The notes beneath the pieces were generated by a model, which made no database searches, was not told where the DNA came from, and saw only the letters and a list, made by a program, of their open reading frames with translations. A stretch of DNA of 64,000 nucleotides from Escherichia coli. GTDB lineage: Bacteria; Pseudomonadota; Gammaproteobacteria; Enterobacterales; Enterobacteriaceae. Below are positions 3,374-56,513 of this stretch, in pieces. Position 1 is the first letter of the stretch, and each line of letters begins with the position of its first letter. The stretch lies in assembly GCF_016903815.1 (NCBI RefSeq), contig NZ_CP069973.1. One strand, given 5' to 3'. A program made the translations under genes and the position numbers.

Positions 3374-4387
3374 TTACAGGTACATTCAGTTTCTTTAGTA
3401 AATCGGAAGTAAATAAGATACGTAGCACATATCAATATAGGTTAAACGAGATTAAGTTTTAATTATTTCGATTAGGTTTAAATTTATGTTTTTTTCCTGA
3501 TGAGTGTCAATATGTGAACAGAAAAGGAATTCCATGGTTAAGTCAATATTTACAAAAAATGAAAATATTGCTTTTTTGATAAGAAGAAAAAGACATTCAG
3601 TTTCATAAGGTTATTGGCAATATAACGTTCAATTCTTACTTGCATTTTATATTAGCCAGGAACTTTGCCCTGAGGTGTTAGGAATAGTCTTAATGTGTTG
3701 TGTAATGGACTAGTAAAAAAACAAGTTTAAATGATAAGAAATAGAATATAAAACTATCATGAGTTATAATTAAAGATGATTTTCCAATCAGTAAGGTGTT
3801 TTAATGGATTAACATGCCGCACAAAATGGTTATGGGTGTTCATCCCAATAAGTGATGAAAAATTAAACAGGTGTAAGTACGTCATCTGTCCGGTAAGCCC
3901 CCTAAGAGCCAAATTAAGTGAAGTTAAACGAAGACTGCCAGTTGTCACAGGAACGATGGCCTCTTTGCCAGGGCACTGCATTCAGTCATCTGTGCGCGTT
4001 ACTCTAACTGGCACTCGAACGTCGGCGATGGGGTTACCGGTGGATCAGGCCGTTCCTGTGGCGTAAACGTTTTTATGTCAGTACCAACAGATTTACCACA
4101 TTTATCATCTTAACCGTTTGAGTGTAAATGCAGGCTGCGTCGCAAAGGGAGGAAACTGAGTGGCGTGTTCAGTCTAAAAGAGAGTTGATGCCAGCATACA
4201 GGGCGCACCTGGTCAACAAGTCAACATTAATATAATGGAATATTCGGAGAGAAACGTCAGGCAGTTGACCTTAAATGAACAGGAAGATACATCCCCAGGA
4301 AAATTAATGCTGGTGTAATAAATACACCAACATTAATCCGGTCTGATTATTAATCAGACAAATATCGTTAATTCGTCGAATTTTGAA

Positions 4388-53797: not shown

Positions 53798-55384
53798 TCA
53801 GTTTTTCAGCCGCCGCCAGAACGTCGTCCGGCTTATGCCTAAATAATTCGCCGCTGCTGTTTTATCGCCTTTAAATTTCTCCAGTGCCTGTTGTGGTGTC
53901 AGTAAGCGTGGAGCGGGAATTTTCGCCGACTCGCGCGCCAGCTCCGGCAGTAGCAGCTGCAAAAACTGCGGCGTTAAATCCGGCGTCGGTTCCACACTTA
54001 AAAACAGCGCCAGTCGCTCCATCATATTGCGCAGTTCTCGAATATTGCCCGGCCAGTCGTAGTGCACCAGCACGGTTTCGCTTGCCTGTAATCCCTGGCG
54101 TAATGCGGAAGAAAACGGGGCAGCAAGTGCAGCCAGAGACACTTTCAAAAAGCTTTCCGCCAGCGGCAGAATATCTGCCACCCGCTCACGCAGTGGTGGC
54201 AGTTGCAGGCGTAAAATGCTCAGCCGATAAAACAGGTCACGGCGAAACTGCCCTTGCCGCATATCTTCTTCCAGATTGCAGTGAGTGGCGCTAATGACTC
54301 GCACATCCACCGGAACAGGCTGATGCCCGCCGACGCGGGTGACCTCTTTTTCTTCCAGCACCCGTAACAGGCGAGTCTGCAAAGGTAGCGGCATTTCGCC
54401 AATCTCATCCAGAAACAGCGTACCGCCGTGGGCAATTTCGAACAGCCCGGCGCGACCTCCGCGTCGCGAGCCGGTGAACGCCCCTTCCTCATAGCCAAAC
54501 AGCTCTGCTTCCAGCAACGATTCGGCAATCGCCCCGCAGTTGACGGCAACAAACGGATGCGACTTTTGGCCCTGTCGCGCATCGTGGCGGGCAAAATATT
54601 CCCGATGAATCGCCTGGGCCGCCAGCTCTTTGCCCGTCCCCGTTTCCCCTTCAATCAACACCGCTGCACTGGAGCGGGCATACAGCAAAATAGTCTGCCG
54701 TACCTGTTCCATCTGTGGTGATTGACCGAGCATATCGCCCAGCACGTAACGAGTACGCAGGGCGTTGCGGGTGGCATCGTGAGTGTTATGGCGTAACGAC
54801 ATGCGCGTCATATCCAGCGCATCGCTGAACGCCTGGCGCACGGTGGCGGCGGAATAGATAAAAATTCCGGTCATTCCGGCTTCTTCTGCCAGATCGGTAA
54901 TCAGCCCCGCGCCGACCACCGCTTCGGTGCCGTTAGCTTTTAGCTCGTTAATCTGCCCGCGTGCGTCTTCCTCGGTAATGTAGCTACGTTGGTCGAGGCG
55001 CAAATTAAAGGTTTTTTGAAACGCCACCAGCGCTGGAATGGTTTCCTGATAAGTGACAACGCCGATAGAAGAGGTGAGTTTTCCGGCTTTTGCCAGTGCC
55101 TGTAACACATCGTAGCCGCTCGGTTTAATCAAAATAACTGGCACTGACAGGCGGCTTTTCAGGTACGCGCCGTTAGAGCCAGCAGCGATGATGGCGTCAC
55201 AGCGTTCGTTTGCCAGTTTTTTGCGGATGTAGGTCACCGCTTTTTCAAAGCCAAGCTGGATAGGGGTAATGTTCGCCAGATGATCAAACTCGAGGCTGAT
55301 ATCGCGAAACAGCTCGAACAGGCGCGTTACAGATACCGTCCAGATAACCGGTTTGTCGTCATTCAGCCGTGGTGGATGTGCCAT
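53798..55384 (-). CDS. prpR: Sigma-54-dependent activator of propionate catabolism
   Basis: 528-aa product from [18 protein letters not shown]+ sigma-54 activator motifs ([13 protein letters not shown]) and C-terminal HTH. Confidence 0.92.
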
Positions 55385-55427
55385 AGCGCACCGCAAAGTT
55401 AAGAAACCGAATATTGGGTTTAGTCTT

Positions 55428-55451
55428 GTTTCATAATTGTTGCAATGAAAC
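55428..55451. promoter_or_regulatory. Dyad GTTTCAT-N10-ATGAAAC upstream of the prpB promoter (candidate PrpR enhancer site)
   Basis: Inverted repeat followed by four more TGAAAC(G) direct repeats at roughly 11-12-bp spacing (55445-55490). Confidence 0.4.
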
Positions 55452-55559
55452 GCGGTGAAACATTGACTGAAACGTTAACTGAAACGCATATTTGCGGATT
55501 ACTTCATGACTTTATTTATAACAAATTGAAATTAAACATTTAATTTTATTCGATCAATT

Positions 55560-55577
55560 GTGGCACACCCCTTGCTT
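55560..55577 (+). promoter_or_regulatory. Sigma-54 (-24/-12) promoter of prpBCDE
   Basis: TGGCAC-N5-TTGCT about 45 bp upstream of the prpB ATG. Confidence 0.75.
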
Positions 55578-55622
55578 TGTCTTTATCAACGCAAATAACA
55601 AGTTGATAACAAAGGATGGGCT

Positions 55623-56513
55623 ATGTCTCTACACTCTCCAGGTAAAGCGTTTCGCGCTGCACTGTCTAAAGAAAATCCATTGCAGATTGTTGGCACCATC
55701 AACGCTAACCATGCGCTGTTGGCGCAGCGTGCCGGATATCAGGCAATTTATCTTTCCGGCGGTGGCGTGGCGGCAGGGTCGCTGGGGCTGCCCGATCTCG
55801 GTATTTCTACCCTTGATGATGTGCTGACCGACATTCGTCGTATCACCGACGTTTGTTCGCTGCCGCTGCTGGTGGATGCGGATATCGGTTTTGGTTCTTC
55901 TGCTTTTAACGTGGCGCGCACCGTGAAATCGATGATTAAAGCCGGTGCGGCAGGACTGCATATTGAAGATCAGGTTGGTGCGAAACGCTGCGGTCATCGT
56001 CCGAACAAAGCGATCGTCTCGAAAGAGGAGATGGTGGATCGGATCCGCGCGGCGGTGGATGCGAAAACCGATCCTGATTTTGTGATCATGGCGCGCACCG
56101 ATGCGCTGGCGGTAGAGGGGCTGGATGCGGCGATTGAGCGTGCGCAGGCCTATGTTGAAGCGGGTGCCGAGATGTTGTTCCCGGAGGCGATTACCGAACT
56201 CGCCATGTACCGCCAGTTTGCCGATGCGGTGCAGGTGCCGATCCTCGCCAACATCACCGAATTTGGCGCAACACCGCTGTTTACCACCGACGAATTACGC
56301 AGCGCCCATGTCGCAATGGCGCTGTACCCACTTTCAGCGTTCCGCGCCATGAACCGCGCCGCTGAGCATGTCTACAACGTCCTGCGTCAGGAAGGGACGC
56401 AGAAAAGCGTCATCGACACCATGCAGACCCGCAACGAGCTGTACGAAAGCATCAACTACTACCAGTACGAAGAGAAGCTCGACGAGCTGTTTGCCCGTAG
56501 CCAGGTGAAATAA
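55623..56513 (+). CDS. prpB: 2-methylisocitrate lyase
   Basis: 296-aa ORF of the PEP-mutase/isocitrate-lyase superfamily (KRCGH motif). Confidence 0.93.

Follow-up and report, generated by a model that had tools for sequence, protein, structure and literature searches.

The divergent genes prpR and prpB of Escherichia coli are separated by an intergenic region of 238 bp (55385-55622 of the window, i.e. the whole stretch of 64 kb that was analysed). Within this region, five exact copies of the hexamer GTTTCA/TGAAAC, one inverted and four direct, are gathered in 58 bp (55428-55485). Judged from its sequence, this array is in all likelihood a multi-half-site enhancer (UAS) through which PrpR would activate the prpBCDE operon, together with a putative IHF bend and a sigma-54 promoter. 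Sequence comparison indicates that the element is almost certainly the counterpart of the characterised PrpR enhancer of Salmonella and is therefore already known in kind. The present analysis supplies the elements themselves, the excess of hexamers, the conservation seen and the association with PrpR-type activators; the binding of PrpR, the need for IHF and the dependence on sigma-54 come from the Salmonella literature.

The prpR-prpB locus

The preliminary description had taken this region for the prpR-prpB control region, and both genes were indeed found at its flanks (Table 1). PrpR contains a PrpR_N sensor domain (residues 36-196), an AAA+ domain (Sigma54_activat, E = 1.7e-65, residues 219-393) with the Walker A motif GETGTGK, and an HTH_8 domain (residues 498-527). 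With its AAA+ and DNA-binding domains, the product of the adjoining prpR gene corresponds to the cognate activator of a sigma-54/bEBP system. The sigma-54 contact loop of the protein (residues ~300-305; window 53801-55384) reads GAFTGS, as compared with the canonical GAFTGA.

The intergenic sequence is 100% identical to that of E. coli strain 7/2. Of 5,426 complete E. coli genomes, 5,218 carry the 238-bp region and 208 lack it; nine copies were found on plasmids. In one strain, SCPM-O-B-9504 (L094, NZ_CP144930.1 3929290-3932487), two IS1 copies flank the prp control region and prpR is an N-terminal pseudogene fragment.

A sigma-70 scan of the control region gave no promoter match on the prpR strand and a single match on the plus strand, at chance level. 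Since prpR is transcribed divergently from the same 238 bp, the hexamer array probably overlaps the prpR promoter as well. At 55404-55421, on the stretch from the prpR start codon to H1, there is a palindrome, AAACCGAATATTGGGTTT, that includes the near-hexamer AGAAAC. It is kept in Escherichia, Citrobacter and Kluyvera, and a T-rich stretch is found instead in Salmonella and C. koseri. This palindrome may be part of the prpR promoter or leader.

Table 1. Features of the prpR-prpB locus. Positions refer to the 64-kb window; centres are given relative to the predicted transcription start of prpB.
Feature	Position	Strand	Remarks
prpR	53798-55384	-	528 aa; sigma-54 enhancer-binding activator
H1: GTTTCA (+), TGAAAC (-)	55428-55433	-	left dyad arm; centre ~-156
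H2: TGAAAC	55446-55451	+	right dyad arm; centre ~-138
H3: TGAAAC	55456-55461	+	centre ~-128
H4: TGAAAC	55468-55473	+	centre ~-116
H5: TGAAAC	55480-55485	+	centre ~-104
CRP-like 22-mer AAACGTTAACTGAAACGCATAT	55470-55491		weighted scan; 6/10 core positions; overlaps H4 and H5
AT-rich spacer	55500-55555		enhancer-promoter gap; most variable intergenic part within E. coli
IHF-like core TTTCAATTTGTTA	55519-55531	-	one mismatch to WATCAANNNNTTR; centre ~-62
Sigma-54 promoter TGGCAC-N5-TTGCT, TGGCACACCCCTTGCT	55561-55576	+	-24 GG at 55562-63; -12 GC at 55574-75
prpB	55623-56513	+	methylisocitrate lyase; first gene of prpBCDE

A dense array of hexamers

The first two hexamers, H1 and H2, are the arms of the dyad GTTTCAT-N10-ATGAAAC, which had been noticed before and was recovered at 55428-55451. 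TGAAAC then recurs three more times (at 55456, 55468 and 55480), and not four times as first described. The direct hexamers H2-H5 are spaced by 10, 12 and 12 bp from start to start. Two one-mismatch hexamers were also observed, AGAAAC at 55402 and GTTGCA at 55439.

The window as a whole is not enriched in this motif: GTTTCA/TGAAAC occurs 40 times on both strands together, a number equal to that predicted by shuffling. A hexamer cluster as large as this one has a Poisson expectation of ~2e-6, and the biggest that arose in 300 first-order Markov simulations had three members and appeared once. In the same way, among the 2,080 hexamer/reverse-complement pairs in the 64 kb, GTTTCA/TGAAAC is alone in exceeding three copies per 60 bp.

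Probable identity of the repeats as PrpR half-sites

According to a review of the Salmonella RpoN regulon, the PrpR enhancer consensus is CGTTTCATGAAACG, credited to footprinting by Palacios & Escalante-Semerena 2004. This consensus consists of two abutting GTTTCA/TGAAAC hexamers, of which the E. coli region holds five exact copies. The sharing of these hexamers suggests that the E. coli array uses the half-sites of the footprinted Salmonella enhancer. The exact Salmonella palindrome CGTTTCATGAAACG is absent from the E. coli region; the aligned position reads CATTGACTGAAACG, in which only the right half is found. The array would thus be a variant arrangement of the same half-sites.

Salmonella and E. 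coli share the prpR-prpBCDE genes, their divergent layout and a sigma-54 promoter placed ~62 bp ahead of the ATG of prpB. An identical first site, GTTTCATAAWTGTTGCAATGAAAC, the invariant TGAAACGTTA hexamer and an AT-rich spacer are likewise common to both. The arrangement of the half-sites is different. In Salmonella and Citrobacter, the palindrome CGTTTCATGAAACG is followed by TGACAC, giving four exact hexamers with the polarity - + - +. Escherichia has five exact hexamers (- + + + +) and lacks the left half of the palindrome; unlike in Salmonella, exact TGAAAC copies flank H4 at a distance of 12 bp on either side (H3 upstream, H5 downstream). In addition, the Escherichia spacer is ~25 bp shorter than that of Salmonella. 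No description of this rearrangement was found in the literature searched, and key primary papers lay beyond that search.

The repeats had been considered more numerous than PrpR would need. Their number is no puzzle, because the consensus is palindromic, the Salmonella region itself contains four exact hexamers, and sigma-54 activators function as hexamers. Arrays of this kind have known parallels. The NorR enhancer at norVW contains three GT-N7-AC sites, all needed for the assembly of the activator oligomer. As in NorR/norVW and NtrC/glnAp2, the PrpR array offers several sites at which an AAA+ oligomer would be nucleated, ~100-150 bp ahead of the sigma-54 promoter. PrpR arrays differ from these systems in their recognition sequence and in their mixed inverted and direct half-sites with irregular spacing, where NorR and NtrC use regular dyads.

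Conservation of the array

Orthologous regions were compared from three Salmonella subspecies, Kluyvera, E. fergusonii, E. marmotae, E. albertii and five Citrobacter loci (C. koseri, C. braakii, a C. amalonaticus-like locus, C. werkmanii and Citrobacter sp. FP75), the cross-genus alignment comprising 13 Enterobacteriaceae sequences. H4, in the form TGAAACG, is invariant (13/13). H1 is exact in 12 of the 13 sequences, with GTTTCG in S. indica, and H2 is likewise exact in 12/13, with TAAAAC in Kluyvera. The block TGTTTCATAAWTGTTGCAATGAAAC that contains H1 and H2 is essentially invariant in this alignment.

The other two hexamers are more restricted. H3 is exact in Escherichia only; it reads TGAAAT in E. 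albertii and TGATTC or another sequence in Salmonella and Citrobacter. The degenerate copy in E. albertii implies that the hexamers need not all be essential. At the H5 position, TGACAC or TGGCAC was found in Salmonella, Citrobacter and Kluyvera. In Salmonella and Citrobacter, GTTTCA abuts H4 directly, and TGACAC or TGGCAC follows 12 bp downstream. The complete 14-mer CGTTTCATGAAACG, aligned with H4, is present in Salmonella and in the C. koseri, C. braakii and C. amalonaticus-like loci, and C. werkmanii and Citrobacter sp. FP75 have its 12-bp core GTTTCATGAAAC preceded by G. Escherichia has ATTGMC at the position of the left half of the palindrome.

Within E. coli, the 73-bp array (K-12 version) is unchanged in 4,511 of 5,220 records, and no record has less than 95% identity to it. 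For the whole 238-bp region, 1,411 E. coli records have 90-95% identity to the window. Within Escherichia, the bases between the hexamers are conserved like the hexamers themselves, so that conservation inside the genus cannot single out the hexamers.

Sigma-54 promoter, AT-rich spacer and a possible IHF site

The sigma-54 element TGGCAC-N5-TTGCT of the preliminary description is present, although its ends, given as 55560-55577, had to be corrected (Table 1). Nowhere else in the 64 kb is TGGCAC-N5-TTGCW matched exactly, and the element is conserved in all 13 Enterobacteriaceae as well as in more distant orthologues. The position of the -12 GC predicts a transcription start near 55587. Relative to this predicted start, the hexamers are centred between -156 and -104, within the range of ~80-200 bp that is typical of activator sites. 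In vitro, genomic SELEX with the RpoN holoenzyme gave a peak in the prpR/prpB spacer of K-12. Genetic work in Salmonella found that prp expression needs prpR, ntrA (sigma-54) and ihf.

The AT-rich stretch between the array and the promoter, also pointed out earlier, was confirmed with 82% A+T as compared with 50% for the whole window. In an alignment of seven Escherichia sequences (five E. coli, E. marmotae and E. albertii), substitutions are concentrated in this spacer. The spacer bases TAAC..ATTGAAATT, which contain the IHF-like core, are nevertheless invariant in the seven sequences, and a TAA....TG element is found at the same position in other genera. Two further one-mismatch IHF matches lie near 55519-55531. 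It is plausible from these sequences that the AT-rich spacer undergoes an IHF-type bend, because IHF is required in Salmonella and the IHF-like core is invariant in an otherwise variable spacer. The order of enhancer, putative IHF bend and -24/-12 promoter is shared with XylR/Pu and other IHF-assisted sigma-54 promoters; in contrast to XylR/Pu, the prp site is a predicted one, with one mismatch. Not every PrpR orthologue leaves room for such a bend: in L009 and L010, for example, the spacer measures 45-56 bp.

Beyond the sigma-54 promoter, the prpB leader has features of its own. On its minus strand at 55596-55608, TATCAACTTGTTA agrees with the IHF consensus at every position. There is also an 8-bp perfect inverted repeat, TTATCAAC...GTTGATAA, with arms at 55583-55590 and 55602-55609. 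The inverted repeat and the exact IHF match are kept in Escherichia, Citrobacter and Kluyvera and are not found in Salmonella. A structured RNA in this leader was considered and rejected, the hairpin being weak (-6.8 kcal/mol, z = -1.9) and not conserved in Salmonella.

Co-occurrence with PrpR-type activators

Hexamer arrays accompany prpR well outside the enteric bacteria. In Photorhabdus and in Oxalobacteraceae/Burkholderiales, PrpR orthologues of ~60% identity are divergent from prpB, and three to six exact hexamers lie upstream of sigma-54 promoters. For instance, GTTTCA occurs twice and is followed by TGAAAC four times in L010 and three times in L013. Arrays of five or six hexamers were found in E. 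coli, L010, L013 and a spirochaete locus (L022). The latter encodes a PrpR_N-type activator, and its gene is followed at 4296-4342 by three GTTTCA and two TGAAAC copies, ~110 bp upstream of TGGCAT-N5-CTGCA. In a MAG of the Desulfofervidaceae (L025:3445-3481), three direct copies lie just downstream of the gene of a response-regulator-type activator with a recognition helix of the SRTTLW type.

The link between hexamers and the recognition helix was examined in 71 activator loci among the matches listed, a cluster being defined as at least three hexamers per 80 bp. Among these listed matches, clusters were present in 12 of the 23 loci with an SRTTLW-type helix and in none of the 48 loci with another helix (Fisher 1e-7). 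When close orthologues were excluded, clusters were still found in 3/9 SRTTLW-type loci as compared with 0/48, again among the matches listed (p = 0.003). This suggests, at the level of sequence association, that the hexamer recognition code may be wider than PrpR proper. The proposal that the repeats form a multi-site enhancer is thus supported by the match to the Salmonella half-site, by conservation and by this co-occurrence with PrpR-type helices.

The pooled hexamers extend to TGAAACR, the next base being a purine in 44 of 48, and in most arrays GTTTCA copies come before TGAAAC copies. Spacings between hexamers range from 6 to 31 bp across taxa, so that no one fixed arrangement of dimers can account for every array. 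Fixed helical phasing as a general rule was likewise rejected, given the 10/12/12 bp of E. coli and the variation elsewhere.

Some other loci were recorded beside these. In a Bacillota MAG (L016:4152-4177), a hexamer array lies just downstream of a sigma-54 activator gene. The helix SR(T/S)TLW is common to the activators of L022, L016 and L025. Upstream of prpB in Xanthomonas massiliensis (L014) and in a Burkholderiales MAG (L015), the repeats are of the GTTTCG/CGAAAC type and retain the GAAAC core; the PrpR homologues of these two loci are more distant, with 44-46% identity.

Alternative explanations

The control region is AT-rich (61-82% A+T), which could favour a cluster of hexamers as a chance or compositional product of intergenic DNA. 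On the contrary, the expectation for such a cluster is minute, simulations never gave more than three members, no other hexamer passes three, and the cluster is conserved across genera; a compositional artefact was ruled out on these grounds, and the probability left to chance is negligible. Another possibility is that only the H1/H2 dyad and H4 are functional, H3 and H5 being idle copies left in Escherichia by the tandem duplication or slippage of a 12-bp unit. TRF does detect, at 55456-55486, 2.6 copies with a period of 12 bp, and both the restriction of H3 to Escherichia, with its decay in E. albertii, and the TGACAC found in place of H5 outside the genus would agree with this idea. However, the 12-bp frame is ancestral, since Salmonella has TGATTCGTTTCA / TGAAACGTTAGC / TGACACGT in the same register. 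Moreover, of the 5,220 E. coli records, at least 86% carry both H3 and H5 and none has less than 95% identity over the array; the appearance of the two hexamers goes together with the disappearance of the left palindrome half, which looks like compensation. Idle copies produced by slippage are therefore held to be very unlikely.

A second regulator had also been suggested for the repeats. In its explicit form, H3-H5 would be mainly sites for CRP and/or Cra (FruR), coupling propionate catabolism to carbon status, and PrpR would need H1 and H2 only. Claims for both proteins exist, with weak support, and neither is needed to explain the repeats. For CRP, control of both promoters is found in the literature, and a biosensor paper citing Lee et al. 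2005 reports a CRP site that overlaps the PrpR operator and whose mutation abolished PrpR regulation. The best CRP-like 22-mer covers H4-H5 and, from its sequence, is probably this literature's 'putative CRP site overlapping the PrpR operator'. Yet no site with three or fewer core mismatches to TGTGA-N6-TCACA was found in the E. coli region, the 22-mer matching 6/10 core positions, and prpR and prpB are among the RegulonDB CRP targets missed by CRP SELEX (Shimada et al.). Mutating the CRP-like segment would also destroy the PrpR half-sites H4 and H5, so that the published CRP-site mutations may have acted by removing PrpR contacts. For Cra, the left half of the operator is TGAAACG, and ACTGAAACGTTAAC (55466-55479) departs from RSTGAAWCSNTHHW at one position. 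Genomic SELEX is reported to have placed a Cra site in the prpB regulatory region, and phosphomimetic Cra lowered prp expression. On the other side, an EMSA with prpB DNA from the same authors detected no shift, and prp is not mentioned in the main text of a Cra ChIP-exo study. In the E. coli region, the Cra matches are one-mismatch, asymmetric matches to RSTGAAWCSNTHHW that overlap H4 and H5, and the palindrome TGAAWCGWTTCA is not found with two or fewer mismatches. The Cra operator shares the half-site TGAAAC(G) with the PrpR array; compared with the PrpR palindrome, its half-sites are reversed, TGAAAC and then GTTTCA, and abutting. Finally, the invariant H4 belongs to the PrpR palindrome of Salmonella, and multi-hexamer arrays accompany PrpR-type activators in Oxalobacteraceae and in a spirochaete. 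CRP or Cra may be overlaid on the PrpR enhancer, but they leave unexplained the hexamer arrays that lie beside PrpR-type activators far from enterics, and a main role for them at H3-H5 appears unlikely.

Proposed mechanism and significance

With the array read as a PrpR enhancer, each GTTTCA/TGAAAC(R) hexamer would be the contact for one C-terminal Fis-type HTH of PrpR, and the array would concentrate PrpR on DNA and favour the assembly of the AAA+ oligomer. Binding of 2-methylcitrate to PrpR_N would lift the repression exerted by this domain. IHF would then bend the AT-rich spacer near -62, so that the PrpR oligomer could reach sigma-54 RNA polymerase in its closed complex, and ATP hydrolysis by PrpR would remodel this complex and open the -24/-12 promoter. 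For E. coli, we infer the occupancy of each hexamer, the stoichiometry, the exact IHF site and any overlap of the array with the prpR promoter.

A broader and more tentative proposal, which we regard as rather doubtful, is that PrpR-type enhancers are flexible platforms with about one hexamer per activator subunit, in which the number of half-sites and their convergent polarity would be conserved and fixed dyads would not. Half-site turnover between Salmonella and Escherichia, with one palindrome half lost and two direct copies gained, would have taken place without loss of function. TGAAACR would be read by SRTTLW-type helices across phyla, including in activators with other sensor domains, and in enterics the likeness of the half-sites to those of Cra and CRP would let these carbon-flux regulators compete or cooperate with PrpR.

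The results add detail to a known system and do not open a new one. The pPro vectors for propionate-inducible expression are built around the prp promoter, as are propionate biosensors for the gut. Salmonella parts have been reported to give ~threefold higher output. Promoter engineering could be guided by the five half-sites, arranged otherwise than in Salmonella, by the reported CRP site lying on two of them, and by the IHF-like core as the sole conserved part of the spacer. The half-site arrangement, the CRP overlap and the IHF-like core may also bear on the higher output of the Salmonella parts, in a region that serves as the control switch of propionate catabolism.
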